From: Bacteroidia bacterium
Lineage (GTDB): Bacteria > Bacteroidota > Bacteroidia > NS11-12g > UBA9320
Length of the DNA: 64,000 nt
Assembly (NCBI GenBank): GCA_018402155.1
Contig: JAGYJG010000001.1
Location: forward strand, 506,198-570,197
Direction: 5' to 3'
Shown: positions 2,959-63,823 of the stretch, one piece after another
How the letters are laid out: every line of letters starts with the position of its first letter
Position numbering within the stretch: the stretch's first letter is position 1
Position numbers and translations under genes: made by a program
Notes under the pieces: generated by a model
Databases searched by the model: none
The model's input: only the letters and a program-made list of their open reading frames with translations
What the model was told of the DNA's origin: nothing

Positions 2959-3102
2959 ATTAAGGACAAACGTACAACCTCTAAACTTGCAAGTAAAAGT
3001 ACTAGTTGCCACTAAAGAAGTGCCTATTTGTTTAGTTGACCGTGTAATCTTGCTGCTTTGCGATCTACGCCCTCACTACCATTGTGCTTTAATCAAAATA
3101 TT

Positions 3103-18575: not shown

Positions 18576-18596
18576 ATATAAAAGAGGATAAAGTCT

Positions 18597-18953: not shown

Positions 18954-19016
18954 ATTTTACGTAATGATTAAATAATAAATAGTGTATTATGGTTAGAATA
19001 TTAGAAATTATCAAAG

Positions 19017-19814: not shown

Positions 19815-19817
19815 TAG

Positions 19818-20402
19818 TTAAAAATCGGGTGCAAAATATAAAAACAAATATAAATAAACCCATAAGAAGCCTACAAAGTGCCAATAAGTATTGCACATAC
19901 TGATTTGCAGAGTGTTTTTCTTATGAACTTGGAGTTTCATCGTTTTACCTAATATCACAGACAAATAGATGAGACCTCCGAAAATGTGTACTAAATGAAT
20001 GGCAGCTATAGCTATTAGAAAAGATGCAGAAACGCGATCTCCGTATTTTGGATTTACAAAGTGAAGCCCATTTTCCGATAATTGTACCCAGCCCATGTAC
20101 TGCGTAAAACCAAAAGCAATACCAAGAAGAATAGTCAAACTGAGTCCTATTTTTATACCAGTAATTTCATCCTTTTTCGCACTTCTGTAGGCATAAAGCA
20201 TAGTAATAGAACTTAGGAGAACAACGATGGTAGAATATAAAAATACCGAAGGTAGCTCAAAGTTATACCAATTTCCGTCGCCTTTTCGTACGATATAGGC
20301 ACTGGTAAGTCCAGAAAATAGCATCAAAATACCGAGTAACAGCAACCATAAACTAAATTTTTTAGGATGAACTCGGCCAGTGTATGTCAATTCTTCAGTC
20401 AT
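19818..20402 (-). CDS. cytochrome c oxidase subunit III (short form)
   Basis: 194 aa. 'YWHFVGFLWVYLYLFLY' cox3 C-terminal motif. A second cox3 paralogue is usual in Bacteroidetes caa3 operons. Confidence 0.8.
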   Translation of the reverse strand: MTEELTYTGRVHPKKFSLWLLLLGILMLFSGLTSAYIVRKGDGNWYNFELPSVFLYSTIVVLLSSITMLYAYRSAKKDEITGIKIGLSLTILLGIAFGFTQYMGWVQLSENGLHFVNPKYGDRVSASFLIAIAAIHLVHIFGGLIYLSVILGKTMKLQVHKKNTLQISMCNTYWHFVGFLWVYLYLFLYFAPDF

Positions 20403-20406
20403 AAGA

Positions 20407-21300
20407 TTATATTTTGTCTATGAGTAACACTATTAGCGCTAAAGGGTTGTAGACTATAGATGCAAACATTAGTTTTTTTGCTGCATCTATGGAGAGTGTC
20501 TTATACAGCTGATGTGCAAAGTAAACAAGTATTAAAGAGCCTATAGTAAGTAAGAAAATACTCAAAACACCGCTCATATTTATCGCATAAGGCAATGCAC
20601 TAATGGGCACTAGTAGGGTGGTTACCATTAGAATAAGAAGAGCAGTCGTTTTAGTTTTGCCTTTCTTTAAGGGTAAAAGCCGGTATCCTGCTTTTTTATA
20701 ATCGTCATCTAAAATCCAAGCTATAGCCCAAAAATGTGGAAATTGCCAAACGAACTGAATTAGGAAAAGTATGCCTGCAGCGGCAGAAAATCTACCCGTA
20801 GCTGCTACCCAGCCTAATAATGGGGGAATAGCACCAGGCACTGCACCTATATAAACTGCAACACTGGATACGCGCTTTAGCGGAGTATACAAAAATGCAT
20901 AACTTATCAATGATCCAATACCTAAAATTGCAGCATGTTGATTTAGGTAATAGCCCAATAAAAAAACTCCAAGTGCTCCAGTTAGGGTACAAAATATGGC
21001 CGCTTCCAAAACACTCATTCTGTTTTGTGCAAGTGGTCTGTTTTCCGTACGAGTCATAAGTATGTCATAGTTTTTTTCAATAATTTGGTTTAGTCCATTA
21101 GAAGATGCTACCACCAAAAAACCACCTAGTATAAGTGCAGTAAGTTCTACCCAATTTAGCGCACCCGAGAAACCAATTAAATAACCGAATACGGATGATA
21201 ATACGATTGTAAAGGTCAATCTGAATTTTATCAGTTGACTATAATCTGTTAACTTGGCTCTTATGCCCATATATTCAGTATGTATACTAGCTGATTTCAA
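20407..21300 (-). CDS. ctaB: protoheme IX farnesyltransferase (heme O synthase)
   Basis: 297 aa, UbiA-family polyprenyltransferase. Overlaps ctaA by 4 nt. Confidence 0.85.
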   Translation of the reverse strand: MKSASIHTEYMGIRAKLTDYSQLIKFRLTFTIVLSSVFGYLIGFSGALNWVELTALILGGFLVVASSNGLNQIIEKNYDILMTRTENRPLAQNRMSVLEAAIFCTLTGALGVFLLGYYLNQHAAILGIGSLISYAFLYTPLKRVSSVAVYIGAVPGAIPPLLGWVAATGRFSAAAGILFLIQFVWQFPHFWAIAWILDDDYKKAGYRLLPLKKGKTKTTALLILMVTTLLVPISALPYAINMSGVLSIFLLTIGSLILVYFAHQLYKTLSIDAAKKLMFASIVYNPLALIVLLIDKI

Positions 21301-22316
21301 TTGCTATTTGTAATTTTATTTACGGTTAAAAACGAAGTGCAAATATAAAATTGTATGACGAATATCGCTGCACCCATACTTATATGGAACAGTTTTGAAA
21401 TAGACGCCGTGGTGGGGTGTAAGGCTAGTGGTCCCCATACTAATTGAGCTATGCACAAAAACAGTATCCATTGGTACAATTTCTTTTTGTTGTTCTGTTT
21501 TTTTGCTACTATAAACTGGTAAATAGACATAACCAAAACGATAGAGCCAAGTACGGCGTGCCATTGGAAGGTGGGATACATTAGTTCAATTTTAGCTGCC
21601 ATGTCACCGATAGTAGGGAGTAAATCATACAATTCGCGTACTTCTGCTCCCAGTATTACCTGTATAGCTGTAAGTATGAGTAAAGCTGTTCCTATTTGTT
21701 TAGTTTTACTATCGTATTCTTCGACAATCTGAGAAATGGAATAGTGCCTGGCGAGTATAAAAAAACCAATACTAGCAAAAGCTGCAATAAAATGCAGTGT
21801 AACAATGCTGCCAATCAAGTTACTGTGAACTACCACTGCTCCCAATAGTGCATTGACCATTACAAAAATAAATCCAGCTAATGTATACCAAAATACGGGT
21901 TTATTTTTTCTAAAATACCTTAAACTCCATACAAAACATAGCAAAACTACCACACCTGTGAGTGCACCCCACAACCGATTTATATATTCTACATAGGCTT
22001 TAATTGCATTGAATTTGTGAGATTCTTCGACCTGTGTATTATTTCTGAGGGCATCAGCTTTTTTATTCCAGCCTATATGCTCTAGCAGTGATACAAATCT
22101 TTCATTTTTGGTAATCCGTTGCTCTTTAAAATAATTTTCGTAATCTGCTGGGAGTTCCTTTTCTGATAATGGTGGGATATACTCACCGAAACATTTAGGC
22201 CAATCTGGACAACCCATGCCACTGCCTGTACTACGCACCAATCCGCCAATCACAAATAACATAAAAATCAGTAATATGGATGTTCCGTTGAGTTGCTGAT
22301 ATGTTACTTTTTTCAT
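21297..22316 (-). CDS. ctaA: heme A synthase (COX15/CtaA family)
   Basis: ORF 21297-22337 begins with TTG. The in-frame ATG at ~22316 (MKKVTYQQLNG...) is the more likely start. Polytopic, conserved His residues in TM helices. Confidence 0.7.
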   Translation of the reverse strand: MKKVTYQQLNGTSILLIFMLFVIGGLVRSTGSGMGCPDWPKCFGEYIPPLSEKELPADYENYFKEQRITKNERFVSLLEHIGWNKKADALRNNTQVEESHKFNAIKAYVEYINRLWGALTGVVVLLCFVWSLRYFRKNKPVFWYTLAGFIFVMVNALLGAVVVHSNLIGSIVTLHFIAAFASIGFFILARHYSISQIVEEYDSKTKQIGTALLILTAIQVILGAEVRELYDLLPTIGDMAAKIELMYPTFQWHAVLGSIVLVMSIYQFIVAKKQNNKKKLYQWILFLCIAQLVWGPLALHPTTASISKLFHISMGAAIFVIQFYICTSFLTVNKITNSN

Positions 22317-22342
22317 TGTATTTAGGGTTTTGGGCAAAAAAA

Positions 22343-22375
22343 AGCCGTCTTCTGCAAAAAGACGGCTTTTTTGTC
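22343..22375 (-). terminator. intrinsic (bidirectional-type) terminator between coxI and ctaA
   Basis: 9-bp GC-rich stem AGCCGTCTT / AAGACGGCT with a 7-nt loop, followed on the minus strand by eight U residues. It sits in the ~69-nt gap between the coxI stop and the ctaA start. Confidence 0.55.
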
Positions 22376-22385
22376 TCTTGTTGTC

Positions 22386-24278
22386 TTATGCAGTTCTGGG
22401 TTTAAACCAGTTGCGGATTAAGTCGAAGAAGTTAGTGTTTTCTACCACTGATTCATCGTTGGTAGAGAGCACACTTTGTTTTTTAGTTTCAAATAGTTCT
22501 ACATCTTGTCCTTCGTCAGGTACATTTTGCATTTTAAAATCTTCTTCGTATGCAGGATTGCTGTAGTCATAAGCCCAACGGTATACTGTTGGTATTTCTC
22601 CTGGCCAGTTTCCGTGTATTCTTTCTACAGGTGTAGTCCATTCTAGGGTATTTGCCTGCCAAGGGTTCTGCGATGCTTTTTTACCAATGAATATGCTTGA
22701 AAAGAAATTGTAGATAAAAAGCAATTGTGCAATACCACCTAAAATAGCAGCAAGTGTCATTAGTACGTTAACATCTGCCCATACACCATACTCTGGAAGA
22801 AGCGTAAAAGCATAATATCTCCTAGGCACACCAGCTAAACCAATAAAGTGCATCGGGAAGAATACCAAATAAGCGGATATGAAAGTCAACCAGAAGTGAA
22901 GATAACCAAGAGGTTTATTCATCATTCTACCAAACATTTTTGGGAACCAGTGATAAATACCAGCTAGCATACCAAAAATGGCAGCACAACCCATAACTAT
23001 ATGGAAATGACCAACTACAAAATACGTATCGTGTAACTGAATGTCTAGCGTGGCATTTCCTAAAAATATACCTGTAAGACCACCAGAGATGAAGAAAGAT
23101 ACAAGACCAATAGCAAACATCATAGCATTTGTAAATCTGATGTTACCTCTCCAAAGTGTTGCTAGATAATTAAATGTTTTTACCGCAGAAGGTACAGCAA
23201 TTATGAGCGTAGTTACCAAAAATACTGCACCAAGAAGTGGATTCATTCCTGTGATAAACATATGGTGCCCCCAAACTATAAATGATAAGAATGCGATACC
23301 CAAAAGAGAGATGACCATTGCGGTATATCCAAAAATAGGTTTACGTGAATTTATGGCGATTACCTCTGAGGTAATACCCAAAGCAGGCATTATTATAATA
23401 TACACCTCTGGATGACCCAAGAACCAAAATAGATGTTGGAAGAGAACAGGACTTCCCCCGGTATGCTCTAAGGCACCTGCAGAACCTAGATAAATATCAG
23501 ACAAGTAGAAACTTGTTCCAAAGCCTCGATCAAACAAAAGAAGTAAACCACCTCCTAGTAAAACTGGGAAAGATAGCAGACCCAATACAGCAGTTAGAAA
23601 TAATGCCCAAACAGTGAGAGGTAAACGTGTCATTGACATCCCTTTTGTACGCATGTTTAACACTGTACTGATATAATTTATACCACCTAAAAGAGATGAT
23701 GCTATGAAGAGTATAATTGCTACTAGCCAGAGGGTCATCCCCATACCTGATCCTGGCATAGCTTTGGGTAGTGCACTTAGCGGAGGATAAATTGTCCAAC
23801 CTCCTGATGCAGGTCCTGTTTCTACAAATAATGACGAAAGTAACACTATGCTGCTAAGAAAAAAGAACCAATATGAAAGCATATTCATGAAGGGAGAAGC
23901 CATATCTCGGGCTCCAATTTGAAGTGGCAGAAGTAAATTGGCAAACGTGCCACTCAGACCTGCAGTGAGTACATAAAATACCATTATGGTCCCATGCATA
24001 GTCACTAATGCCATATAATATCCTGCATCCAATTTTCCATCTGGCGCCCATTTGCTTCCAAATAGCCACTCTAAAATAGGAAATGAAGTGTCTGGATAAG
24101 CTAATTGTAGTCGAAATGCAATAGACATTCCCATGCCAATTAGTCCCATTATAATTCCAGTTATCAAAAATTGTTTAGAGATCATCTTATGATCCATGCT
24201 AAAGACATACTTCGAGATGAAGGACTCTTTGTGGTGGTGATGTTCCTCTGTGTTTGCGTGTGCTACTGCTGTACTCAT
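22386..24278 (-). CDS. ctaD: cytochrome c oxidase subunit I
   Basis: 630 aa, 12+ TMs, conserved heme a/a3 and CuB His ligands (WFFGHPEVY, HHMF...). Confidence 0.95.
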   Translation of the reverse strand: MSTAVAHANTEEHHHHKESFISKYVFSMDHKMISKQFLITGIIMGLIGMGMSIAFRLQLAYPDTSFPILEWLFGSKWAPDGKLDAGYYMALVTMHGTIMVFYVLTAGLSGTFANLLLPLQIGARDMASPFMNMLSYWFFFLSSIVLLSSLFVETGPASGGWTIYPPLSALPKAMPGSGMGMTLWLVAIILFIASSLLGGINYISTVLNMRTKGMSMTRLPLTVWALFLTAVLGLLSFPVLLGGGLLLLFDRGFGTSFYLSDIYLGSAGALEHTGGSPVLFQHLFWFLGHPEVYIIIMPALGITSEVIAINSRKPIFGYTAMVISLLGIAFLSFIVWGHHMFITGMNPLLGAVFLVTTLIIAVPSAVKTFNYLATLWRGNIRFTNAMMFAIGLVSFFISGGLTGIFLGNATLDIQLHDTYFVVGHFHIVMGCAAIFGMLAGIYHWFPKMFGRMMNKPLGYLHFWLTFISAYLVFFPMHFIGLAGVPRRYYAFTLLPEYGVWADVNVLMTLAAILGGIAQLLFIYNFFSSIFIGKKASQNPWQANTLEWTTPVERIHGNWPGEIPTVYRWAYDYSNPAYEEDFKMQNVPDEGQDVELFETKKQSVLSTNDESVVENTNFFDLIRNWFKPRTA

Positions 24279-24301
24279 TATTTTAAATTTTACTTTATAA
24301 A

Positions 24302-26125
24302 TTAATTTGAAGCTACTGTTTCAGTTCCCTTTTCGGTTGTACTTTCTGTTTCCGCATTTTCAGTTTCTGTATTCTCTATTTTATTAACAAACAAACCTGC
24401 TTGTTCGTTCATCCATTTATCACGAGATTTTTGATCTTCTACTACTACTTTCATTTTCATATTAAAATGTGCGTTTCCACAAATCTTATTACATACTAAG
24501 TAATAGTCAAACTCTGGATCATTTTTTATGATTCGCATTTCCTCCGTGGAAATAATAGGTTTAAAGGTAAACTCAGTAGGTAATCCAGGTACCACGTTCA
24601 TCTGTGTCCTAAAATATGGCAGATAGGCAGAATGTATTACGTCTCTTGCTCTAAAATTTAGTGTGACTGGTACATCTTTTACGAGGTGAATTTCACCTAC
24701 CACTTGGTCGTCATCTCCCTCACTACTAAACATAGAACCTTCTTTTACAGCTAAAGCTCCTTTCAAACGCTCTATTTGAGTATTACGCGCTCTTATTGTA
24801 AGTCTTAGCTCATTTTCTTTATCCCCACTTGTATACGAATGGATATTTTTTAGATGAGATTCTCTTTCTTTATCTAATAAGCCACCCAATGTAGCCCGCA
24901 GTTTAGCCTCTTCTTGCGGCAAGCGTGAGATTGCTTCTTCCAGCGAAACTATTTCTTCTTGTAGTTCGGTAATTAAAGCAGTAGCATGTTCTCTATTTGC
25001 TACGCCTAGCGGATTCGTACCATTTATTAGGTTATAATTTGCCTTGCCTAATTTTCCGTCTGGACCAGGATAACGAGCATTCCACCCAAATTGATAGGCA
25101 AATACTTCTATTTGTTCTGCATTTTTACTTGAATCACTTCGTAGTATTTCATTCCACATTTTAAACCCACCAGACACCAATACAGCTAAAACTACCGCGG
25201 GGATTAAGGTCCAAACATATTCTAAATTATTGTTGTGCGACAAGAAATAAGCTTTTCTTCCGGGCTTTTGTCGGTATTTAAATGAAAAATAAAACAATAA
25301 AAACTGTGTAATAAAAAATACTGGTAAAGTCGCTGCAAAGGTCCATTGCATCATTTTATCCATATCTACACCATGCTCTGATGCACTTTGTGGTAGTAAA
25401 AATTGTTTGTGAATACTATATTCATAAAGCACTAATCCAAAAAAACCAATTAAAAAGATTAACATCATATATGCATTGATGTTATTCCAATTGATGATTT
25501 CTCGACCAGTGACATTTGATACCAATTCCAATATCCCGAATATGAGTAAGATAATGACAAAAACTAGTATTGACATTACCACAACTGCCCAGTTTACATT
25601 ATTGAAAAGGGAATCATTTATTGGAGCAGTGGGGACTGGCTCACCGCCCTCTACTGCAGCTGGAGCATCACCATCCCCTTTGTTGTCTATCCACATTAAT
25701 ATTGAGGTGATTTGGTCATCACTCAGATTCTCAAAAATGTTCATGGCTGCACCGTTATATTCATTGTAAATGGCCAATGCACGTTCGTCTCCAGCTTTTA
25801 CTAATTTTTGATTGTTCTTTATCCAAGCATTCAACCATTCATAATCCTCATCGTATTTATCTATAAGACCGGCTAGAGCTGGGCCTACTACTTTACCATT
25901 TAGAGCGTGGCAAGAAGCACAATTCGCAGAGAATAACTCGCTACCTTCTTTTATACGTTCATCTGTACCCTCTTGGCCCGCTATAGGACGGGTCAAATTA
26001 TTTTTGTATGCAAAAGAGTGATGTACGAAAAATATTCCGATGATCAGGAATAGCCATTTAAAATTTTGTTTGAAATTGTTTGACATTAATACCCTATTTT
26101 TTATGTTCAAAATTAAGTGAGGCAA
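24302..26125 (-). CDS. cytochrome c oxidase subunit II fused to an N-terminal cytochrome c domain
   Basis: 607 aa. N-terminal 'CASCH' heme c motif. C-terminal CuA centre 'H...CNKICGNAHFNM' (C-x3-C-G-x2-H-x2-M). The true start may be the internal ATG at ~26086. Confidence 0.85.
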   Translation of the reverse strand: MPHLILNIKNRVLMSNNFKQNFKWLFLIIGIFFVHHSFAYKNNLTRPIAGQEGTDERIKEGSELFSANCASCHALNGKVVGPALAGLIDKYDEDYEWLNAWIKNNQKLVKAGDERALAIYNEYNGAAMNIFENLSDDQITSILMWIDNKGDGDAPAAVEGGEPVPTAPINDSLFNNVNWAVVVMSILVFVIILLIFGILELVSNVTGREIINWNNINAYMMLIFLIGFFGLVLYEYSIHKQFLLPQSASEHGVDMDKMMQWTFAATLPVFFITQFLLFYFSFKYRQKPGRKAYFLSHNNNLEYVWTLIPAVVLAVLVSGGFKMWNEILRSDSSKNAEQIEVFAYQFGWNARYPGPDGKLGKANYNLINGTNPLGVANREHATALITELQEEIVSLEEAISRLPQEEAKLRATLGGLLDKERESHLKNIHSYTSGDKENELRLTIRARNTQIERLKGALAVKEGSMFSSEGDDDQVVGEIHLVKDVPVTLNFRARDVIHSAYLPYFRTQMNVVPGLPTEFTFKPIISTEEMRIIKNDPEFDYYLVCNKICGNAHFNMKMKVVVEDQKSRDKWMNEQAGLFVNKIENTETENAETESTTEKGTETVASN

Positions 26126-31796: not shown

Positions 31797-33284
31797 CTAT
31801 TTTATCTTTTTAAATACGTGTATTTCAAACTCTTTGTCATTTAAAGTCTTAATGGGCTGCTTTGGTATTATGCTATGTATTTTTTGCCAAGTAGAGTCGT
31901 GCTCCAACACGTGCAACGGGGTACCACTCTCGTGTGGACCAAAATGACCGTCCCAAATCAAAATATCGTCTTTCTTGCTAAATTGTAGGCTGCTATTCCA
32001 AAAATCAAGATGCTCTAACTCGTTGTATGGATTTATATCTGCCAATAATGAGAAGTATGGATACAAGTATATTTTTCTGTGGGCTTCAAGGTTTTGGGAT
32101 TTGTACCATTCGGCTAATTTATGATATTCGGATTGTTCTGCAGAAATCTGCAAAGGATACTTGTACGCATAGTATCTATATGGTGTATAAATAGCATTTG
32201 ATACAAGAAGTGCGAGTATCAACATAAATACAAATGGAAGAAGTTTGGCTGCATACTGCTTGAGGTTACGATAAAAAGTATTTACTGCAAATACCATCAG
32301 AATAGCTGCTAGTGGAGCTATTACTACCATTACTCTGACATACCCGCAACTACCCATTTTCCCAAGCCACCATATTGCCGTATGACTCAAAAAGTAGAGT
32401 ATAAAAGTTAAAAATATAAGACCTAAAGTATTATTGGCAGGTTTGCTCTTATGCAATAAAGATAGTAGATAATATAACCCACCTAGCGTCATGAGAACTG
32501 AACCTACAAGACCAAAGGTATAATGGCCGGCATAGACGTAATGAAATAGTCCTCCGTTTCCACATACGTTTCGTCCCGAAAGTTCGAAATTGATATACGG
32601 ATTTGATGTGATAATCCAAAAAGGCTCACCTTCAATAATCCAACCCAGTACATTAAATAGTAAGCTTCCCAGTATAGTATATCCTAAAATTTTATATTTT
32701 TTATCTACAAAAAGGAGAAATACAGCAATGGCAAAAAGTACAATGAAACCCTCTGAACGCACAAAAGGCAAAAAGCCCGCCAAAATAGCTGCTGCCGTAA
32801 AATGTTTACTGCTGTAAAAATAAATTGTAAGTGTAACTAGTAGTGCACAAAGAGGTTCCGTAAGTACCGATAGAGTATTATCTAAAAAAATAGGAGAGGT
32901 TAAGGTGAAGATATAGCCGAGCCAAGCAAATCGTAGACCTATTTTACGGATAATATGATAGGTTAATATTGAGGACCCCAAAAGCGAAAAAGTATTGAGC
33001 ACGTATGCACCTGCCACGCCAAATTGCACAAAAGGAGAAGCTATAATATTGTACAAAGGCTTACCCCATTGATCTAAAAAGAGGCTAGGGTAAGACCAGG
33101 AATACCGTGCAATAAGGTAGTGATTGTAAGAATCCATCCCACCTTCTAATCCAGGAGAAAGATAGGCTAAAATAGCGATTACAGAAAAAACTGCAAAGGT
33201 GAATATAACGAGTAATGGTATTTCCCAATTACGTATTATTCTAAGCACAATGCTCTTTTTATCGTTAGTAGGTAGATTGGACAC
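31797..33284 (-). CDS. polytopic membrane protein, possibly a GT-C-fold glycosyltransferase (GT39/ArnT-like)
   Basis: 495 aa with ~11 TMs in the N-terminal 380 aa and a soluble C-terminal domain. The architecture resembles GT-C transferases. No catalytic motif verified. Confidence 0.3.
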   Translation of the reverse strand: MSNLPTNDKKSIVLRIIRNWEIPLLVIFTFAVFSVIAILAYLSPGLEGGMDSYNHYLIARYSWSYPSLFLDQWGKPLYNIIASPFVQFGVAGAYVLNTFSLLGSSILTYHIIRKIGLRFAWLGYIFTLTSPIFLDNTLSVLTEPLCALLVTLTIYFYSSKHFTAAAILAGFLPFVRSEGFIVLFAIAVFLLFVDKKYKILGYTILGSLLFNVLGWIIEGEPFWIITSNPYINFELSGRNVCGNGGLFHYVYAGHYTFGLVGSVLMTLGGLYYLLSLLHKSKPANNTLGLIFLTFILYFLSHTAIWWLGKMGSCGYVRVMVVIAPLAAILMVFAVNTFYRNLKQYAAKLLPFVFMLILALLVSNAIYTPYRYYAYKYPLQISAEQSEYHKLAEWYKSQNLEAHRKIYLYPYFSLLADINPYNELEHLDFWNSSLQFSKKDDILIWDGHFGPHESGTPLHVLEHDSTWQKIHSIIPKQPIKTLNDKEFEIHVFKKIK

Positions 33285-43343: not shown

Positions 43344-44582
43344 GTGGGTTCGAAACAAGATAGCTTAAATGAAAAACTGACGTCCAAATCACCTTTGGTC
43401 TCATGGTTGTTAACACCTGCTATTTTGGGAGGTATTGCTCTTCTTGGGTTCCAAACATATAGCATTGTAACAGGTAAATCATTTGCCGATTTTGATTTTG
43501 GTATAGGCAAGCTTTGGATGAACGAAGAAGTAAGTTCTCACAAAGAAATAGACAATATTAAACCTTTCAAAGCCGCGACAGGAGAACGACAATCTTTAGC
43601 TACTAGTAATATGCAAGGTGATAATGTGGCTCTCACCGTCATCGTGCCGCGCAGTAAAAATAATAAATCTTTAGTCAAAGAAAACAACACATCAAGCACT
43701 CGATCTCCGCAAAAAATAGCTAAAATAGTATCTTTGGATATCATAGAAGCGACGAGTTTGTCTGCTAATTTTGGGACTAAACAATTACAAAAATACACCA
43801 AAAGATTGCAGCAAGAATATTTGATAAATCCGAAACTTGTTCCTGACGTTGGGCGTTGGTTTGTAGGATTTAGCTTTTCGCCAAGCGTATGTTACAGAGC
43901 CTTTAGTTACAACACTAGTGATCTGCCAGGAGTGGCTGTTGAAGGAAATACACGGTATACTTTTAGTATGCCAGAAGAGGAAAGAAATCGCACAGATAAA
44001 GCAATTACCTCTTACGCTATTGGTTTGGATTTTGGCATTCGAATATCAAAAAAAGTATCCATATTTTCGGGTGTGCATTATGCTAAGTATGGGGAGCAGA
44101 TACAGGTGAAGCAAACAGATGAGCTAAATCCCAACTACCACCTAGCGTACTTCATGGACAAAAAACCACAATACGAAAGAACTGAAAACAGCCAAGAGGC
44201 TAGCTTACCCTATACAAATAGGTATTCGTTTATAGAAGTGCCTATTGGTTTGAGTTATACACTAAAAGAGTATACAAAATCAAAAATAGCATTGCAAACT
44301 GCAATAATCCTTCAAAAACTAGACCACGTGAATGCCTTGGTTTACGACTTTGATACTGATTACTACTATTGGATGAACAGTAAAAATGAAGTATTTAGAT
44401 CACATGGTTTTGGCGGAAGTTTGGGCGTATCCTTTTCCCAATTTGTTGGAGAAAGACTAGAACTGTATGCGGCACCGCAATTTAAATATAATGTGAAGTC
44501 TACTTTTAAAGCAACTTATCCGATCAATCAAAACCAATATACAGCTGGTCTGCAGGTAGGATTTAGGCAACAACTCCTATAA
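43344..44582 (+). CDS. putative outer-membrane beta-barrel protein (OmpA-like porin family). The start codon is uncertain.
   Basis: 412 aa as called (GTG start). C-terminal ~250 aa has alternating-hydrophobic beta-strand periodicity ending ...GLQVGFRQQLL. A signal-like segment follows a possible TTG start at ~43395, and the alternative ATG is at ~43518. Confidence 0.4.
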   Translation: MGSKQDSLNEKLTSKSPLVSWLLTPAILGGIALLGFQTYSIVTGKSFADFDFGIGKLWMNEEVSSHKEIDNIKPFKAATGERQSLATSNMQGDNVALTVIVPRSKNNKSLVKENNTSSTRSPQKIAKIVSLDIIEATSLSANFGTKQLQKYTKRLQQEYLINPKLVPDVGRWFVGFSFSPSVCYRAFSYNTSDLPGVAVEGNTRYTFSMPEEERNRTDKAITSYAIGLDFGIRISKKVSIFSGVHYAKYGEQIQVKQTDELNPNYHLAYFMDKKPQYERTENSQEASLPYTNRYSFIEVPIGLSYTLKEYTKSKIALQTAIILQKLDHVNALVYDFDTDYYYWMNSKNEVFRSHGFGGSLGVSFSQFVGERLELYAAPQFKYNVKSTFKATYPINQNQYTAGLQVGFRQQLL

Positions 44583-45796: not shown

Positions 45797-45857
45797 TGAA
45801 TACATAGCATAAACACAAAGTTATATACGAAAATGAGAATAGGTGAGTTGTACTAAG

Positions 45858-46736
45858 ATGAGATACTTATCAGCGTTAGCATTTTCTTTTTTATTCCTTG
45901 TATCTTTAGGACAAAGAGTTGATGTAAAAACGGGTGATTCTACTTACATAGATTCTATACGAAACTATGAGTATCAATTGGAGGGCTTAAGTCATAATAT
46001 CATAAACGCTCAAGACCAAGTAGAACGCATCACCAGTTGCTACTACTTCATTCAAACCCTAAAAACTGCGCTTAGTATTCCAAACTCTTTTGATTATGAT
46101 TTTACTACCATCAAAACCGTATCAGTTATCCGGTCAGATGATGATAGGTTTAGATTATTTACCTGGAATTTATTGCTAGATAGTGGCGTGTATATGTATT
46201 TTGGTGCAATTCAAATGAATAATTTTGATAGTTTAGAGCTATATGGATTATACGATAGCTCAGAATACAATAAAGATTTGTACTACGGCCAATTCGATAA
46301 TCGTCATTGGATGGGTGCGTTAGTCTATCAAATGCACCACTATAAGTTCAAGAAAAAAAATTATTACCTTACTTTTGGATGGGATGGACAAGATGCTAAA
46401 ACCAATCGAAAAATTTTAGATGTACTTTGGTTTGATGAAGAAGGAAAGCCCCAGTTTGGAGAAGAAATATTCGACTTTGACGGTGATCTGCAGTCGCGAA
46501 TTATTTTTGATTTTAATGATAACGCTGCTATGCTATTGCGGTATGATAAAAACGAAGAAGCTATCGTATTTGCAAATTTGGTTCCTATCAACCCACTCAT
46601 GGTTGGTATGCACGAAAACTATGTACCCGACGGTACATACGACTATCTTAAGTTTGAAAAGGGAATTTGGAGACGCTATAAAATGATGTTTGAGAGCCGT
46701 GGTAAAAAGCATGGTGGCGATCTCAGAAAGTTTTAG
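45858..46736 (+). CDS. hypothetical secreted protein
   Basis: ORF from 45843. The signal peptide (MRYLSALAFSFLFLVSLGQ) starts at the ATG at ~45858. No recognisable domain. Confidence 0.4.
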   Translation: MRYLSALAFSFLFLVSLGQRVDVKTGDSTYIDSIRNYEYQLEGLSHNIINAQDQVERITSCYYFIQTLKTALSIPNSFDYDFTTIKTVSVIRSDDDRFRLFTWNLLLDSGVYMYFGAIQMNNFDSLELYGLYDSSEYNKDLYYGQFDNRHWMGALVYQMHHYKFKKKNYYLTFGWDGQDAKTNRKILDVLWFDEEGKPQFGEEIFDFDGDLQSRIIFDFNDNAAMLLRYDKNEEAIVFANLVPINPLMVGMHENYVPDGTYDYLKFEKGIWRRYKMMFESRGKKHGGDLRKF

Positions 46737-49052: not shown

Positions 49053-50153
49053 TTAATACGTTATTTTATTCCATGGACTGTTTATCAAGGCGTTATATAG
49101 TTTTTCTGATTTGTGTGCTGGTACTTCCTGATTATTGATAGTTTCTACTAAAAAATCGAAACGTTTTTCACTTAGGTATTCTTCTAATCCTTGCAAATTT
49201 ATTTGCACATTCATTTCGCGCAATTGGTTTATAGATAAGTGAATGGAATGTTTATCTATAAATAAATCAATACCCTCAATAGTTTGAGTAGGAATATTTT
49301 TGAATTTACCCCAGTTTTCGTACACTGTAATGTTTACCACCTGCAAAGGTTTGTTTGATATATGGGAGAAATATGCATCACCGCCTGCATTCAATATAGT
49401 CTGTTTATTGTCGTTGATGTATTGTTCTATGATTTTATAAAAGCCCTTATTTTCTTTATTAGAATTGATGTCAGGATGAAGAACTCTGTAGGTTATTCTT
49501 TTAGTATTGTCGAGAGTATAAAATTCTCTAAAAATTTTTTTATCAGATATGGCTTGATACTTTAAAGCAGCCGATAAGCGAGGGTTTCTTATAAAGTCAT
49601 TAGCACCAAATTGTACTAAATTAAAATTGAAAGTGTTGCTATGCAGAGCGTCCCAAAAGGTCAGGTTTGCCGGTCCATTAGCATTGGTAGGTATTTTTTC
49701 TGATTGTAATAGAAGTATTAGGTCGGGGCAGTGTACATAACCATAATTTATTTTTTTGCCATTTTTGTCTTGCCCAATGAAAGAAAATCCTTCTACAGAA
49801 AAGTCAAAATTTCTTTTGAATAATTGCCAGTACTCGTGCAAAAACATATCTGAAACATTCACAAAAGGTACTTTTGCATTTTTTTCTGAGATAATCAGGA
49901 GTTGAGGATCCAAAATTATACGTCTTTTACTATCTTCCCAAAGTGGTATATCACCAGTAAGTATTCTGGGGTAAATTAATTCTGCTATACCAGTTGTCAA
50001 ATTAAATCCAACACTGTCTGCCTGTGAAAGAGCATCAACATGAAGCAGTGCAGGGGTCACTTCATAATTTTTTGGTGTACCGTTTGTATTGTTAGGTGCA
50101 CAAGATGTAAGCCAAATTGCCGCTATGCTCCAAGTGTATTTAAACAAACGCAT
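49053..50153 (-). CDS. hypothetical lipoprotein
   Basis: 366 aa. Lipobox 'WLTSC'. No recognisable domain. Embedded between the glutaryl-CoA DH-like and phosphohexomutase genes with overlapping ends. Confidence 0.4.
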   Translation of the reverse strand: MRLFKYTWSIAAIWLTSCAPNNTNGTPKNYEVTPALLHVDALSQADSVGFNLTTGIAELIYPRILTGDIPLWEDSKRRIILDPQLLIISEKNAKVPFVNVSDMFLHEYWQLFKRNFDFSVEGFSFIGQDKNGKKINYGYVHCPDLILLLQSEKIPTNANGPANLTFWDALHSNTFNFNLVQFGANDFIRNPRLSAALKYQAISDKKIFREFYTLDNTKRITYRVLHPDINSNKENKGFYKIIEQYINDNKQTILNAGGDAYFSHISNKPLQVVNITVYENWGKFKNIPTQTIEGIDLFIDKHSIHLSINQLREMNVQINLQGLEEYLSEKRFDFLVETINNQEVPAHKSEKLYNALINSPWNKITY

Positions 50154-53827: not shown

Positions 53828-53909
53828 GCCCGGATGGCGGAATTGGTAGACGCGTCGGTCTCAAACACCGATGCCGCAAGGCGTGCCGGTTCGACCCCGG
53901 CTCCGGGTA
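53828..53909 (+). tRNA. tRNA-Leu (anticodon CAA), type II with a long variable arm; 3' CCA not encoded
   Basis: Folded by hand. Acceptor GCCCGGA/TCCGGGT, 3-bp D-stem with GG in the D-loop, anticodon stem TCGGT/ACCGA with loop CTCAAAC, 13-nt variable arm, T-arm GCCGG-TTCGACC-CCGGC, discriminator A. Confidence 0.8.
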
Positions 53910-53914
53910 CTTCA

Positions 53915-54242: not shown

Positions 54243-54863
54243 TTATCTAATGTAAGGCATTCTTTTACTTGCTTGTCTCATAACCTGGTCAATGAGTCTT
54301 GCAGGGCTGCTGCCTAGTCCACCCGAAAATCTATTATCGTAATTCCATATCAGTTTTTTATTGTCACAATCAGTGATATTTAACGATGCACTGAGTTCAT
54401 TTGTAGCTCCATAGGTACCAGCTAGTAGTGCGAGTGCTACTGCAGCTCCATCTGACATTGGTTTAGATAAAGCATAATTAGAGCCTAAAACGCCATCAAC
54501 GCCCAAAATTTCACACATTTCACTCGGCGTTAAAGGAGTTTCAGGATAGCCAGCTTTTTTTAGCTTGGCATTGGTAGTTTCTATATCCAGAATCTCTTGA
54601 GTTATTATGCTTTGCATTTTTCGTCTCAACATCCAAGAATACATTTCCTTTTGAAAGTTTAATGATTCTGTTCGCTGCTGTTCCTTTATAGCTTCTGCGT
54701 CAGTATTTCTCTTTGCTGATATAGAAACAGACGGTGGTAGTATTGCAATAGAGGAATGACTGGTGGCTAGCATAGTAGCATCAGGGCTATAAAATATGCG
54801 TGCACATGATGATGATAATAGGGCGAAAACGCACAAGACGAGAATAATTCTATTTTCTTTCAT
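54243..54863 (-). CDS. hypothetical lipoprotein
   Basis: 206 aa. Lipobox 'LLSSSC'. No recognisable domain. Confidence 0.4.
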   Translation of the reverse strand: MKENRIILVLCVFALLSSSCARIFYSPDATMLATSHSSIAILPPSVSISAKRNTDAEAIKEQQRTESLNFQKEMYSWMLRRKMQSIITQEILDIETTNAKLKKAGYPETPLTPSEMCEILGVDGVLGSNYALSKPMSDGAAVALALLAGTYGATNELSASLNITDCDNKKLIWNYDNRFSGGLGSSPARLIDQVMRQASKRMPYIR

Positions 54864-57477: not shown

Positions 57478-57520
57478 TACTTGGTTTTTTTCTTTTCTGT
57501 TATTCGTATTCTAAAAAAAA

Positions 57521-57883
57521 ATGCAAAACTATAAGCCGGGTTCTGTACTCGCCGAAGCAAGTGCTTACCATTTATCTATGCTACCTACCCTCTATAGTTT
57601 CTCAATTATATTGAAAATCGGACGAGCTGCCCTCTACCTATAGTTTACTTGGTATTACAACGTGCAAGGTTTGTACCAAATGAATGTTGCCACTCAAGCG
57701 CGTGAGCTCTTACCTCACATTTTCACCCTTACTCACGATTTCTCGGAGCGGTTATTTTCTGCTACCCTTTCTGTTACCAAGGTATTCCTACCTCAGCACC
57801 CTTTATTTCTAAAGGTACACTGCTCTGTGTTGCCCGGACTTTCCTCCCTCCGCCGAAGCGAACAGCGATAAGCCGTTTTGCAG
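57521..57883 (-). ncRNA. rnpB: RNase P RNA, bacterial type A
   Basis: Minus-strand reading gives 5'-CUGCAAAACGGCUUAUCGCUGUUCGCUUCGGCGGAGGGAGGAAAGUCCGGGCAACACAGAGCAG...GGUAAGAGCUCAC...GGUAACA...GUAAGGGUGAAA...ACAGAACCCGGCUUAUAGUUUUGCA-3'. It contains the universally conserved P4 region (GGAAAGUCCGGGC), GUAAGGGUGAAA, GGUAAGAGC and the ACAGAACCCGGCUUAU 3' strand, with 5'/3' ends pairing as P1 (UGCAAAAC/GUUUUGCA). A -7 box TACATTTG lies immediately upstream, and a U-tract follows the 3' end. Confidence 0.85.
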
Positions 57884-58510
57884 TACAAATGTATAGTTTT
57901 TTGAACGTTATTTTATACTCTCGTTTATTCACGTGTTAGCCACAATTCTTGCTCAATCTGTGTTATTTTAAAATAAGTGTAACCATGATATCATTTTGTG
58001 ACTTTCTGAGAATTGTCTCAATTTTTCGATACAGAAAGTATTTTAATGTTAGATTCAAATCGCTAATCCAATTTTTTTTGGGTACAAAAGATTTTCTTGA
58101 GTTAAATTTAATAAGAGATATTTGCTTTTTTCAACTATTTGACTTGAGTTTTTTCTTGTTTCTAGAGTTATGAAACCATAAGCTAAGACATCAATAAGTC
58201 ATTAATGGATTTCTTTAGCAGCCTCATAGCATTTAGTAATCATCTTGTAACGTGTCAAATAGATTTGGGCTACGTCATAGTGTAAGCTATAAAAATAGCG
58301 TTGGCCGCAATCAAAGTTTGGGAGTTGCAATACTGAAATGGTTTAGTGGTAAGTAGTGCGAATACTACTGATTTTAAGAATATCAAATTAAGGCTTAGAT
58401 AAGAAAGTGTATTCAAAATAAAGTATTCCACAACGCCTATGCGTATATGTTATTTAGTTTTCGTAGTAATTTACTAAAAAAGACCCGTTTTTTGTAGGCT
58501 TGAATTTAAA

Positions 58511-59913: not shown

Positions 59914-60762
59914 TCAGCTATATTTTTTTAATGTTTCGAGTAATCGGGGCCCATACCACGAGTAGAGTTTGCCATCTACCAAACTTATTTTGCATTTAGG
60001 AAGCAGTTTCTGGAGCTCTGAGATATGATTCTCGCCAAAAGGAAAAGGCTCAGATGAAAGAAGAATGTTGTCCGGATTTAGATGTTTAATCTGTTCTATG
60101 CTGAGTTCTGGGTATCTAGTATTTTTTTGTTTGAGTGCATTTTGGAAACCAATTTTTTTTAGAACACTATGTATAAATGTATGGCAGCCAGAGGCCATAT
60201 AGGGATTATACCAGATAAGATAAAGTACAGTTCCAAGAGATACTGAGTTTAATTTTGAAAAACCATTGGAGATTTTATTTGCCAATAGATTTGCCTTTTT
60301 TTCTTTGTTTATAAGGTTACCTATACTCTTTATCATTTCTACGGCGTCTTCTATAGTGTATATATCACTAAGCCAAACTGGGAACTCGCTCCTAAGTTGC
60401 TGAATTTGTTTCTGGTCGTTTTCTTCTTTGTTACCAATGATGAGGTCGGGTTGCAAATCTCGTATCTTTTGAAGTCTAAGTTTTTTAGTGCCACCTATTT
60501 TAGTAGACCCATTGAATTTAGAGGATGGATGTAAACAAAAAATGGTTTGTCCTATGGGTACGATATCCAAATAGTAAAGTAGCTCCGTTTGCGATGGTAC
60601 TATTGAAATAATACGTATCGGAGGTCTAGTAAGGGTAATCTTGTATCCCGTTTGATCAATATAGTTCATAGTACTATAAGTAATGGTATATTTGCCAAAA
60701 ATAAAGAATTTGAACGGCACAAAGACCAACTTATTTTTCTGTTTGTCACTTATTTTTACCAC
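59914..60762 (-). CDS. BtuF/FhuD-like periplasmic binding protein fold (class III 'ABC transporter substrate-binding' family), orphan
   Basis: 282 aa as called (GTG start). An alternative ATG at ~60669 would remove the 80-nt overlap with the divergent lectin gene. No permease or ATPase partner adjacent. Confidence 0.5.
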   Translation of the reverse strand: MVKISDKQKNKLVFVPFKFFIFGKYTITYSTMNYIDQTGYKITLTRPPIRIISIVPSQTELLYYLDIVPIGQTIFCLHPSSKFNGSTKIGGTKKLRLQKIRDLQPDLIIGNKEENDQKQIQQLRSEFPVWLSDIYTIEDAVEMIKSIGNLINKEKKANLLANKISNGFSKLNSVSLGTVLYLIWYNPYMASGCHTFIHSVLKKIGFQNALKQKNTRYPELSIEQIKHLNPDNILLSSEPFPFGENHISELQKLLPKCKISLVDGKLYSWYGPRLLETLKKYS

Positions 60763-62752
60763 TTCGGTATTTGGCCAAAGCTATTTTACCAATGGAGATG
60801 CAAGAGCGTTAGCGGGATCTTGCTATGAACTAACTGCAGCTAGAAACTGGCAACTAGGCTCGGTGTGGTATGCAGACAAATTAAATCTATCTAAAGATTT
60901 TGACCTCGAGTTTGAGCTAAATTTTGGCAACAATGATGGAGGTGCGGATGGTATTTTATTTGTAATGCAAACCGTAGGAGTTAGAGCTATTGGCCAGTCT
61001 GGAGGAGGTATTGGATTTGAAGGTTTTTCTCCAAGTTTGGGTATAGAATTCGATACGTGGAGAAACATCGATATGGGAGATATAGTTGCAGACCATATTG
61101 CCATATTGCGCAATGGAAGCGTAAATCATACGAGCACAAATTCTCTTGCAGCTCCAATAGCAGCATTACCCAACGGTGGAAATATAGAGGATGGTTTAAA
61201 TCACTTGGTACGTATCACTTGGCAGGCTGCTACCAATAGCCTGGAAGTATGGTTTGACTGTAGCAAGCGGCATAGTATTACTCTAGACATAAGTAATTCT
61301 ATTTTTGGAGGAGAAAGAGAAGTATTCTGGGGTTTTACATCTGCCACTGGCGGCGCCAATAATAGGCACGTAGCTTGCCTTAGAGACGATATTTTGGTAC
61401 AAGATACTTTTACACTTTGCAAAGGTGATACTATACTATTGAATGCTAAAGAGAGTTTTGATAATAGTTATCTGTGGACACCCTCAGACTTCCTGAACGA
61501 CCCAACTAGTAGAACCCCTGAATGCTTTAGCTTAGAGCCGTTTACCTACTACGTGGAGTATAAAGATCAATGTAATACTATTTTTAGAGATACCGTAGAG
61601 ATACGTATTGATCAACCATTTACTATGGATGAAGGAAAAGATACTTTACTATGTAATGGTAGTTTATATTCTTTTGATCTCAGAAATGAGTATGACAGTA
61701 TCCGCTGGAACGACGGCTCAGTAAACCCGCTAAAATCTTGGCGCGATCCTGGTCTGTATACTCTTCGTGCTTGGAAAGGAGTGTGTTTTGATAATGACAC
61801 ATTTTCTATACGTACAGATGTTTCTCCATCCGTTTCTATCTCTGGGGATTCTATATTTTGCGAAGATAAACAAACAGAAATACGGGCAGATTTGAACCCA
61901 ACTTCTGTATCATTTCAGTGGCAAGACGGCTTGGCTCAAAATCCTCGTATTTTTGATGAAAGCAATATCATCAGTGCTACTGTTCAAAATGAATGTGGTA
62001 TGGCGGAAGATTCGTATCGTATTAGAGAAATTTTACTTCCGAAGCTCTTTTTGGGAAGAGACTCTGCTTTTTGTGAGGGAGATACTATACTACTGGAAGC
62101 GCCCGGGCAATCTAATTTAGTGTATCAGTGGAATACAGGTCAGAATACTCGTTCTATTAAAATTACTGAGCCAGGAGACTATTCACTTGTTATGAGTGAA
62201 GCTGATTTATGTTTTGAGTATGATACGATAACGTTTGCTGGAATACCCTTGCCAGTAATTGGCCTTGTAGAAGACGTATTGCTGTGCAAAAACGAAGAAA
62301 TACTCTTGACTGTAAGCAATGACTTTGGAAGTGTATTCTGGAATAATACCACACAGGGCGATAGTTTTTTACTGAAGAACATCGCAGGCCTAATCTCTGT
62401 AAAATCTGTAAATGAATGTGGAACTGATAGTACTAATCTTTTTGTCAATTTGATAGACTGCTATTGTAGAATTTGGCTGCCAACTGCGATTACCACTAAT
62501 AATGACAACCTCAACGAAACCTTACGCCCTACATTAGATTGCCCAAAGCTGATGGAGTATAACTTAACGGTCTACAATAGGTGGGGCGAAAAACTTTGGC
62601 AGAGCAGTGATACTAATGAGTATTGGGACGCGACATACAATAACCAAGAAGTACAAAGTGGTGTTTATTTTTGGATAGCAAATTGGAGTGGAATTCAAAA
62701 TGGTTTATTAGAGCGGTTTGCTGATAAAGGCATTTTTCACGTTATACACTAA
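60683..62752 (+). CDS. secreted multidomain protein: L-type (legume-like) lectin domain, five tandem ~70-aa Cys-containing modules, T9SS type-B C-terminal sorting domain
   Basis: 689 aa. Signal peptide (LFFCLSLIFTTSVFGQ). Residues ~33-235 match the concanavalin-like L-type lectin pattern (GGGIGF, EFDTW, HIAI...NG). Residues ~241-592 form five repeats that each begin [LF]C.[GDN][DSK]..L and contain ...W..G. The C-terminus 'PTAITTNNDNLNETL...YNRWGEKLW...WDATYNNQEVQSGVYFW' matches the gliding-motility-associated (type-B) T9SS CTD pattern. Confidence 0.7.
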   Translation: MVYLPKIKNLNGTKTNLFFCLSLIFTTSVFGQSYFTNGDARALAGSCYELTAARNWQLGSVWYADKLNLSKDFDLEFELNFGNNDGGADGILFVMQTVGVRAIGQSGGGIGFEGFSPSLGIEFDTWRNIDMGDIVADHIAILRNGSVNHTSTNSLAAPIAALPNGGNIEDGLNHLVRITWQAATNSLEVWFDCSKRHSITLDISNSIFGGEREVFWGFTSATGGANNRHVACLRDDILVQDTFTLCKGDTILLNAKESFDNSYLWTPSDFLNDPTSRTPECFSLEPFTYYVEYKDQCNTIFRDTVEIRIDQPFTMDEGKDTLLCNGSLYSFDLRNEYDSIRWNDGSVNPLKSWRDPGLYTLRAWKGVCFDNDTFSIRTDVSPSVSISGDSIFCEDKQTEIRADLNPTSVSFQWQDGLAQNPRIFDESNIISATVQNECGMAEDSYRIREILLPKLFLGRDSAFCEGDTILLEAPGQSNLVYQWNTGQNTRSIKITEPGDYSLVMSEADLCFEYDTITFAGIPLPVIGLVEDVLLCKNEEILLTVSNDFGSVFWNNTTQGDSFLLKNIAGLISVKSVNECGTDSTNLFVNLIDCYCRIWLPTAITTNNDNLNETLRPTLDCPKLMEYNLTVYNRWGEKLWQSSDTNEYWDATYNNQEVQSGVYFWIANWSGIQNGLLERFADKGIFHVIH

Positions 62753-62919
62753 AACGACAGCGACAGTTTTGCGCTGAGGAATATATTTTATGCATTTATT
62801 CTAGTGAAATCTGCTGCTATTATTTCTCATTTCGTTTTGTTCTACCTCTTAGTTTTATGATTTTCAATCAGTGTATTTTTTTCTAAAGCAGACAAGAATA
62901 GTGAGGTATTTAAAAAAAT

Positions 62920-62950
62920 AGAGGCCTCTCTGAATCTCAGAAAGGCCTCT
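62920..62950. terminator. bidirectional intrinsic terminator (AGAGGCCTCTCTGA-ATC-TCAGAAAGGCCTCT)
   Basis: Extended imperfect inverted repeat with A-runs and T-runs on both sides. It lies between the convergent lectin gene (+) and the small basic ORF (-). Confidence 0.55.
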
Positions 62951-62977
62951 AAAGCATTAATCTATTTATAGTGTTTT

Positions 62978-63208
62978 TTACTCTTGCTCTTCAGTAGGAT
63001 TTTTTTCGGTCTTAGCGGGTTTTGCTTTTGCACTGATAATATCAGTAACATCACCTACAATAACTCCAGATTCAGCTTTGAATGGAGACTCTACGGTTAC
63101 CTTAGTCTTCATTCTTTTGATAGTAGCTACTCTTACTTTAGCTACTGTTTTATTTTTTCGTCCTTTTCTTTCTAATCTTGTTACTCCCATTGCTACAATT
63201 TTTGGCAA
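62978..63208 (-). CDS. small highly basic protein (Lys/Arg/Ala/Thr-rich, histone H1-like tail)
   Basis: 76 aa. KRxK-rich with an 'AKAKPAKTEK' tail. Only 30 nt separate its start from the divergent downstream gene. A real gene is plausible but unverified. Confidence 0.35.
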   Translation of the reverse strand: MPKIVAMGVTRLERKGRKNKTVAKVRVATIKRMKTKVTVESPFKAESGVIVGDVTDIISAKAKPAKTEKNPTEEQE

Positions 63209-63238: not shown

Positions 63239-63823
63239 ATGATAACAAAATTTTTCGACAATGGTATTCCTTCGCTGTTTTTCAATTATGATACAGGCGC
63301 TCCTTTTTCTTCGTGTACCTTCTGCGAAAAAAAATTGACCTCAGAAACTAAGTATGCAGTAGAGAAAATGATAAATCAAAATACTGTAATACAGAGTAGG
63401 GAAATTGTGTATGAATATGCTATGTGCTGGGATTGTGCTTTAACACTAGGTAGCGATATAAGCCAGGAGAGTAAAGCTGCTATACAGCAACTTTACATTG
63501 CGCATGGAGATATACTGATGAGAAAGCTTGATTACTTGCATCGTACAGAGAAGTACAATATCGATAGCTGGCTAGAGCGCTGTTCACTTACAGGTAAAGA
63601 GATAAGAAATTGCGGAGAGTTTTCTGTAAGTGGGATAATTGAGAGCGGAAATTTGGTCTATGAGCAGACACCTATGGTGGTATCTGGAGAGTTTATGCAA
63701 AAACTACACGACGTATTGAGCGAAGAAACAAAAAAAGGGTTTGAGGGGCTAAGGGATAAGATAACAGATGGATCGCCATCAGTAGAAGATTTGGTATATG
63801 GTCCGGTGCCAGGATTATTTTGA
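63239..63823 (+). CDS. hypothetical protein with an N-terminal CxxC...CxxC (zinc-ribbon-like) motif
   Basis: 194 aa. C26-x2-C29 and C63-x2-C66 pairs, acidic C-terminal half. No family recognised. Confidence 0.4.
   Translation: MITKFFDNGIPSLFFNYDTGAPFSSCTFCEKKLTSETKYAVEKMINQNTVIQSREIVYEYAMCWDCALTLGSDISQESKAAIQQLYIAHGDILMRKLDYLHRTEKYNIDSWLERCSLTGKEIRNCGEFSVSGIIESGNLVYEQTPMVVSGEFMQKLHDVLSEETKKGFEGLRDKITDGSPSVEDLVYGPVPGLF

Follow-up and report, generated by a model that had tools for sequence, protein, structure and literature searches.

The window analyzed here, a 64,000-nt stretch of contig JAGYJG010000001.1 (positions 506,198 to 570,197) from a Bacteroidia bacterium of the NS11-12g lineage, carries at 60683..62752 (+) a gene for a 689-aa protein, which is probably (we estimate the probability at about 0.7) a surface lectin adhesin exported via a type IX secretion system (T9SS) with the aid of an unlinked PorP/SprF-family carrier. 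The protein is composed of a signal peptide, an L-type lectin domain, five immunoglobulin (Ig)-like modules and a type-B T9SS C-terminal domain (CTD), in this order. The open reading frame (ORF; 689 codons plus stop), taken from the ORF list of the window, is real: the public gene call P0001, which sits on an NCBI contig of 2,408,626 bp, is identical to it (100% identity). Its domains were identified by searches of Pfam and NCBIfam, and an AlphaFold2 model was built from an alignment of 63 homologues (33–81% identity), which was also used to assess conservation. The model of the 689-aa protein (mean predicted local distance difference test score, pLDDT: 88.4) is all-β beyond the N-terminal signal helix, and it was compared with the structures in the PDB using Foldseek. 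The ratio of nonsynonymous to synonymous substitution rates (dN/dS) of the window gene is 0.12 overall, calculated against the orthologue with 81% identity (L092), which was used for all such values of the window gene given below; the comparisons with the 64–68% orthologues are saturated.

The same architecture is found in the databases as Lectin_L-type_dom (PF18483) + Ig_7 (PF19081) + CHU_C (PF13585), under the names ‘gliding motility-associated C-terminal domain-containing protein’ or ‘lectin-like domain-containing protein’. The homologues number in the hundreds, and some 67 of them are equal in length to the window protein and exhibit 33–81% identity. Nothing essential sets the window protein apart from this family, except that orthologues pass the Ig_7 threshold while its own modules remain below it (E = 0.02), and it is an ordinary representative of a surface sugar-binding family that is widespread in Bacteroidota. 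The role of a cell-surface carbohydrate-binding adhesin, which an earlier note on this DNA had suggested from the letters of the sequence, would be the best-supported function, judging from the predicted domains and fold.

The lectin head

The L-type (legume-type) lectin domain comprises residues 32–233 (60776..61381, +). The Pfam search identified PF18483 with a score of 155.4 bits (cutoff 78.3, E = 2.5e-45, residues 28–233), far above the threshold, and orthologues of the window lectin also pass PF00139. The closest solved structure is that of the legume lectin from Methanocaldococcus jannaschii (7ELV in the PDB), which matches the window sequence with E = 1e-39 and 37% identity. In the Foldseek comparison the modeled head superposes on 7ELV with a template modeling (TM) score of 0.89 and a root-mean-square deviation of 2.0 Å over 208 columns, and on pea lectin with TM scores of 0.66–0.69. 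The L-type lectin proposed in the earlier note is confirmed by the profile match and by the jelly-roll fold of the model, which superposes on legume lectins. A literature search on PDB entry 7ELV and the M. jannaschii legume lectin returned nothing.

The HMMER alignment with peanut lectin pairs the metal-site residues E122, D124, N128, D133 and H138 of the window protein with E121, D123, N127, D132 and H137, and the sugar triad D89, G109 and N128 with D83, G104 and N127; we take the roles of these peanut lectin residues as Ca2+/Mn2+ ligands and as the sugar triad to be established knowledge. Among the 63 homologues every metal and sugar-triad position is either invariant or conserved to at least 90%, and the domain has the lowest dN/dS of any part of the protein (0.046). 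The sequence and the model together thus favor a carbohydrate-binding L-type lectin as the best-supported assignment for the N-terminal domain.

The lectin is preceded by a predicted Sec signal peptide (residues 1–31, 60683..60775, +) with the hydrophobic stretch LFFCLSLIFTTSVFG and a helix spanning residues 11–27 in the AlphaFold2 model. It ends in ...SVFG, and the cleavage (VFG/Q) would occur before Q32, the first invariant residue of the family in the 63-homologue alignment.

The Ig-like stalk

Five tandem modules of 78, 69, 71, 71 and 70 residues follow the lectin head, each with a C...W...C skeleton: module 1 (residues 238–315, 61394..61627, +; C246...W265...C297), module 2 (316–384, 61628..61834, +; C324...W342...C368), module 3 (385–455, 61835..62047, +; C393...W413...C438), module 4 (456–526, 62048..62260, +; C464...W483...C510) and module 5 (527–596, 62261..62470, +; C535...W553...C579). 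Modules 2–5 are supported by the alignment, the model and the Foldseek comparison, and module 1 by a match to Ig_7 and the β-strands of the model. All the Cys motifs on which the five ~70-residue repeats had originally been postulated were found (LCKGDTILLNA at 245–255, LCNGSLYSF at 323–331, FCEDKQTEI at 392–400, FCEGDTILLEA at 463–473 and LCKNEEILL at 534–542), and the second Cys of each module lies 44–51 residues after the first. The identity between modules is only 16–27%; the C...W...C skeleton of every one of them is invariant in the 63 homologues, which argues that the five-module repeat is real and not a product of chance.

The Pfam family Ig_7 (‘Ig-like domain CHU_C associated’) is matched by module 1 alone in the window protein, below the cutoff (15.6 bits versus 27.3, E = 0.02, profile positions 9–82 of 84), and the orthologues P0004, P0017 and P0062 clear the threshold in the homologous region with 28.8–31.3 bits. 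In the model a module usually has six or seven strands (five are listed for module 1), and the best PDB matches of the stalk are tandem Ig chains (Foldseek probability 1.00), with fragments of the GhpA protein from Aureispira at the top. The dN/dS of the stalk is 0.148. The suggestion that the modules form a spacer of Ig-like folds agrees with these results: according to the model and the profile matches, the five modules are predicted Ig-like β-sandwiches, each probably stapled by one disulfide.

The type-B sorting domain

The last domain of the protein (residues 597–689, 62471..62749, +; ...YNRWGEKLW...WDATY...GVYFWIA...KGIFHVIH) matches PF13585 (CHU_C) with 50.2 bits (cutoff 27) over residues 599–668 of 689; its score in the NCBIfam type-B model TIGR04131 falls marginally below the cutoff (see below). 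Its dN/dS is 0.076. No match to the type-A tail (TIGR04183, PF18962) was found at E ≤ 1 in Pfam or NCBIfam, and the type-A reading was rejected on these grounds; the gliding-motility-type (type-B) tail, as originally described, is upheld. The neighboring 440-aa protein, encoded at L001:6249-7571 (-) outside the window, about 3.5 kb past the lectin stop, served as a positive control for the type-A search (TIGR04183: 43.7 bits, cutoff 23). As this protein possesses a type-A T9SS tail, the organism probably uses the T9SS. The type-A protein is found in a tandem duplicate in the sister clade described below (L087:333-3044).

The missing PorP/SprF partner

Neither PF11751, searched against the 45 other ORFs of the window, nor a PorP/SprF profile hidden Markov model (HMM), built from 43 PF11751-confirmed proteins and applied to all window ORFs of at least 100 aa and to L001, gave any match, and in the 10 kb that follow the window none of the called genes is a PorP/SprF gene. 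The absence of a neighboring partner, pointed out in the earlier note, was therefore found in all three checks. A PorP/SprF N-terminal motif pattern likewise found nothing in the window, and only one gene in 1.35 Mb of loci.

The implication that the absence of the partner is an oddity does not stand: the unlinked state is the rule in the stalk-bearing lectin/type-B family and is a situation that has already been described. We surveyed 85 complete genes of the lectin...type-B architecture in 80-odd non-redundant loci from public genomes and metagenomes; 77 of these genes are followed by at least 1.2 kb of sequence. A PorP/SprF gene lies directly downstream in 3 of the 77, and all 3 encode stalk-less proteins (~337 aa); there is none behind any of the 74 stalk-bearing members. 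Nine ORFs of ~300–380 aa directly downstream of homologues were rejected as carriers, since Pfam assigned them to kinase-like proteins, β-lactamases, metallophosphatases or exonucleases or to no family (positive control for this check: E = 3e-41). In F. johnsoniae, 9 of 12 type-B substrate genes adjoin a sprF-like gene, and the three orphans (Fjoh_1123, Fjoh_1720, Fjoh_4934) have the unlinked shuttle Fjoh_1677 in common; shuttle crosstalk between similar CTDs was demonstrated there at roughly 50% identity (PMC12618676). The window protein fits this published class of orphan type-B substrates.

A carrier cassette in the sister clade

A divergent two-gene cassette lies between the neighboring binding-protein gene and the five-module gene in three independent genomes that belong to a sister clade, L087, L090 and L091 (L087:7034-9659, +; L090:4983-7611; L091:4983-7608, all in the same syntenic slot). 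The first gene of the cassette encodes an L-type lectin of 337 aa that has no stalk but carries a type-B CTD of its own; the second, immediately behind it, encodes a protein of 535–552 aa, in which a PorP/SprF barrel (residues ~30–315) is fused to an OmpA peptidoglycan-binding domain (~430–525). Roughly 1 kb separates this carrier gene from the five-module gene, and the two are arranged divergently. The PorP/SprF-OmpA fusion family is small, with 6 members among the matches listed. A decayed version of the cassette occupies L016:7459-9870 (-) in a single-cell genome and is interrupted by stops and frameshifts: the signal-peptide ORF ends after ~25 codons, the lectin with a truncated CTD runs into the PorP/SprF-OmpA frame, and that frame is split by stops into three pieces. 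The broken cassette may be a pseudogene or may reflect an error in the assembly.

The cassette is absent from the window and from its closest relatives (81%, 68% and 64% identity), in which the junction measures 13–15 bp. The neighbor-joining tree of the five-module orthologues places the cassette clade as sister to the rest and the decayed copy among the cassette-less genomes, and this topology favors an ancestral cassette with repeated loss, although a midpoint-rooted distance tree does not amount to proof. At least 12 genomes without the cassette (52–81% identity) have an intact five-module ORF, and dN/dS in other cassette-less pairs is 0.10–0.17. The strong purifying selection on the CTD (0.076) without the cassette argues that it is still used as a secretion and anchoring signal. 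In one genome of the sister clade, the CTDs of the five-module protein and of the short lectin are 28% identical; this low similarity, together with the canonical cognate position of the carrier gene behind the short lectin gene, suggests that the fused carrier is most likely the short lectin's own and not that of the five-module protein.

The number of lectin genes at this locus varies from one to three by lineage. A third paralogue of ~470–490 aa (lectin, fewer modules, type-B CTD) is encoded upstream of glmM at L009:2648-4117, L011:6083-7558 and L016:5940-7370, likewise with no linked PorP/SprF; this gene is not present in the window.

Proposed mechanism and alternative explanations

In the explanation that we prefer, the protein would be exported by Sec and its signal peptide would be cut off before Q32; the type-B CTD would be recognized at the SprA/Sov translocon, and a PorP/SprF-family outer-membrane carrier would collect the protein and anchor it on the surface, as published for F. 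johnsoniae and P. gingivalis. A stalk of five Ig-like modules, each probably stapled by a disulfide, could then, by our estimate of its geometry, hold the lectin head approximately 15–20 nm from the membrane. The carrier would most likely be a PorP/SprF protein whose gene lies elsewhere in the 2.4-Mb genome. The lack of a linked carrier appears to be a derived state, with the cassette kept in the sister clade and deleted in the clade of the window, and with the five-module gene still constrained. The domains, the fold, the ligand residues, the orphan context and the purifying selection come from the present analysis, and the other steps are modeled on the work on F. johnsoniae and P. gingivalis. 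PorP-like proteins are known to anchor type-B proteins on the surface (PMC9143113). For a type-B protein to be mobile, its carrier would have to possess a CxC tail bound to the gliding track (PMC12635249); for a static one, the carrier would have to be tied to peptidoglycan via a PorE/OmpA domain (PMC9143113).

Several points weigh against this explanation. The score of TIGR04131 (33.8 bits, E = 2.7e-8) is slightly under the 35-bit cutoff, and no core T9SS or gliding genes are found in the 64-kb window. Carrier searches seeded with the PorP/SprF proteins of the lineage (the PorP-like protein of L016 and P0129), which reach close relatives and are not genome-wide, gave no protein from the 2,408,626-bp contig, i.e. 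from the window's own genome, among the matches listed. Furthermore, the surface location, the disulfides of the modules and the sugar specificity and metal dependence of the lectin head are properties that we infer.

The failure to find a carrier could also mean that the protein is exported by the T9SS and then released in soluble form, or anchored with no PorP/SprF carrier, e.g. by another type-B anchoring mode. This would agree with the family-wide orphan state (74 of 74 stalk-bearing members), with the lack of a same-genome carrier among the matches listed in the seeded searches and with the report on C. hutchinsonii, in which the anchoring of 27 type-B proteins is stated as unresolved and WaaL-independent (PMC12860637). 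However, all type-B substrates tested experimentally need a PorP/SprF-like carrier, including the three F. johnsoniae orphans (PMC12618676) and PG1035 with PorP (PMC9143113), and the negative carrier searches made here were not genome-wide. We regard carrier-free anchoring or release as unlikely. A related and rather speculative idea, for which we would argue with still more reserve, is that the stalk-bearing lectin/type-B family is a subclass of type-B proteins that lacks a dedicated carrier and uses either one generalist PorP (cf. PG1035-PorP in P. gingivalis) or no PorP/SprF carrier; it is derived from the orphan state of all 74 members combined with the constraint on the CTD after the loss of the only nearby carrier.

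If, on the other hand, the five-module lectin once shared the PorP/SprF-OmpA carrier with the stalk-less paralogue, the loss of this carrier could have left a protein that is no longer properly exported, i.e. a decaying relic. The carrier of the sister clade is indeed encoded only ~1 kb away from the five-module gene, divergently, and the cassette locus appears to decay, as in L016. Yet the ORF is intact in all those cassette-less genomes, its dN/dS of 0.10–0.17 (0.076 for the CTD alone) indicates constraint, all key residues are invariant, the 28% identity of the two CTDs is below the ~50% of demonstrated crosstalk (PMC12618676), and the carrier gene comes immediately after the short lectin gene, as is canonical for a cognate pair. 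The relic or pseudogene reading was therefore rejected on the constraint data and retains hardly any probability in our estimate. As for the head, the ConA-like domain could serve protein–protein adhesion or have an enzymatic function instead of binding sugars. L-type lectin folds serve non-sugar ligands in some proteins, and the closest solved structure (7ELV) was deposited as an apo form. Against this, the Ca/Mn ligand set and the Asp-Gly-Asn triad are complete and invariant, the dN/dS of the domain (0.046) is the lowest of the protein, and every one of the best matches, by HMM as well as by fold, is a genuine lectin, which makes a non-lectin function improbable.

Comparison with known systems

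A close parallel to the window protein is provided by the F. johnsoniae orphans (Fjoh_1123, Fjoh_1720, Fjoh_4934), which also carry their type-B CTD at the very C-terminus, lack an adjacent porP/sprF-like gene, are likewise predicted to be adhesins and rely on a carrier whose gene is located elsewhere (PMC12618676); for the window protein such a carrier is proposed only, and the likeness concerns the CTD and the gene context. Unlike F. johnsoniae, the window organism is an uncultured marine member of Bacteroidia with a small genome. SprB shares with the window protein the type-B CTD and a repetitive Ig-like passenger and is anchored via a PorP/SprF-family protein, but it is about tenfold larger, lacks a lectin head and is encoded with sprF directly behind it. 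The C-terminal CxC motif of SprF couples it to the gliding track (PMC12635249). Since no porP/sprF-like gene is adjacent to its gene, the window protein is not of the canonical linked SprB/SprF type.

The M. jannaschii lectin (7ELV/7EXO), the closest solved structure, has the same metal-site and ADG motifs as the window lectin; however, it is archaeal and lacks both the Ig stalk and the T9SS tail. SraP from S. aureus (4M00/4M01) and YwfG from Lactococcus (7YL4-6), both found by Foldseek, resemble the window protein in presenting an L-type lectin head on an envelope-tethered β-sandwich stalk, but they use an LPXTG/sortase anchor and another type of stalk module, and the sequence similarity is low (E-values of ~1e-5 to 5e-3). 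GhpA, the grappling-hook protein of Aureispira (9FLP and related entries), is made of chains of Ig domains and is the top structural match to the stalk. Aureispira, a member of Bacteroidota, secretes it via its T9SS. Unlike the window protein, GhpA is a giant multimeric predation device, and the identity is only 10–16%. RemA, the mobile cell-surface lectin of F. johnsoniae, is likewise a T9SS surface lectin adhesin of Bacteroidota. The lectin domain of RemA, however, is from another fold family. RemA also differs in possessing a type-A CTD, which is handled by PorV (PMC12618676).

Genomic neighborhood

The lectin gene is preceded by a divergent gene of the Peripla_BP_2 (periplasmic-binding-protein) family (59914-60669, -), the start of which is 13 bp from the lectin start; this junction (60670..60682, no strand assigned) is the slot occupied by the cassette in the sister clade. 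Next beyond the binding-protein gene is a gene for a PGM/PMM-family phosphohexomutase, probably glmM. The synonymous substitution rate (dS) of the first 31 lectin codons is only 0.05 against the 81% orthologue, compared to ~0.9 for the whole gene, and over the 40 bp of the divergent junction (60655-60695) a single base differs from that orthologue. A TAnnTTTG motif, which we take to be the Bacteroidota −7 promoter consensus, is found at 60687-60694, slightly inside the annotated coding sequence, and an in-frame TTG at 60710 is a possible alternative start of the lectin gene. Together these observations suggest that the promoter signals of the two divergent genes overlap.

Downstream of the lectin gene there are a convergent 76-aa ORF (62978..63208, -) and a 194-aa ORF (63239-63823, +), neither of which matches a family in Pfam or NCBIfam. 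The 76-aa protein is basic and the 194-aa protein has two CxxC pairs and no signal peptide; both genes are syntenic with the lectin gene throughout the lineage. A hairpin with a 15-bp stem (62919..62951, -) is located 167 nt after the lectin stop. The earlier note described here a bidirectional terminator directly following the gene; the hairpin is indeed strong, but it is not direct, given the 167 nt, nor clearly bidirectional, as its T-run is found on the minus strand only. It thus serves mainly to terminate the convergent 76-aa gene, although lectin transcripts may be stopped there as well. The gene order glmM, binding protein, lectin, small ORF, 194-aa ORF, type-A protein, SDR, MlaE, ABC, S46 peptidase is kept down to ~50% identity.

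The ORF-poor gap upstream of glmM is mostly taken up by a class A RNase P RNA (57516-57884, -; Rfam RF00010, 177 bits), and a tRNA-Leu(CAA) gene lies at 53828-53910 (+). Six ORFs of 206–547 aa have no Pfam match at E ≤ 0.01: 12692-14335 (-), 31797-33284 (-), 43344-44582 (+), 45843-46736 (+), 49053-50153 (-) and 54243-54863 (-). They have no convincing match in NCBIfam (a weak sub-threshold one was found for 31797-33284), and the PorP/SprF HMM was negative for all six. The remainder of the window is housekeeping, with the spans 571-6375 (+) and 17372-26125 (-), and includes a cluster of glycosyltransferase, sugar-transferase and epimerase genes, a cytochrome c oxidase cluster (COX1/2/3, CtaA/CtaB, SCO1), recA, ffh, an ExbB-containing cluster and a sigma-54 response regulator.

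Biological significance

The missing partner of the window protein is real but ordinary, and it is the cassette of the sister clade that provides a new context. Should the stalk-bearing family prove to be the subclass with no dedicated carrier that we tentatively outlined above, the series of loci with an intact cassette, a decayed cassette and a clean deletion would constitute a natural experiment in carrier loss. The PorP/SprF-OmpA fusion, in which the carrier is joined to a PorE-like anchoring module, lends natural-fusion support to the published PorP-PorE anchoring model (PMC9143113). The significance of the window protein itself is modest: with it, the orphan type-B substrates of the T9SS, a class recognized only recently, gain a well-defined and widespread family that occurs mainly in uncultured Bacteroidia, marine lineages included. 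As its sugar and metal site is fully conserved, the lectin head may plausibly mediate attachment to glycans on particles or algae.

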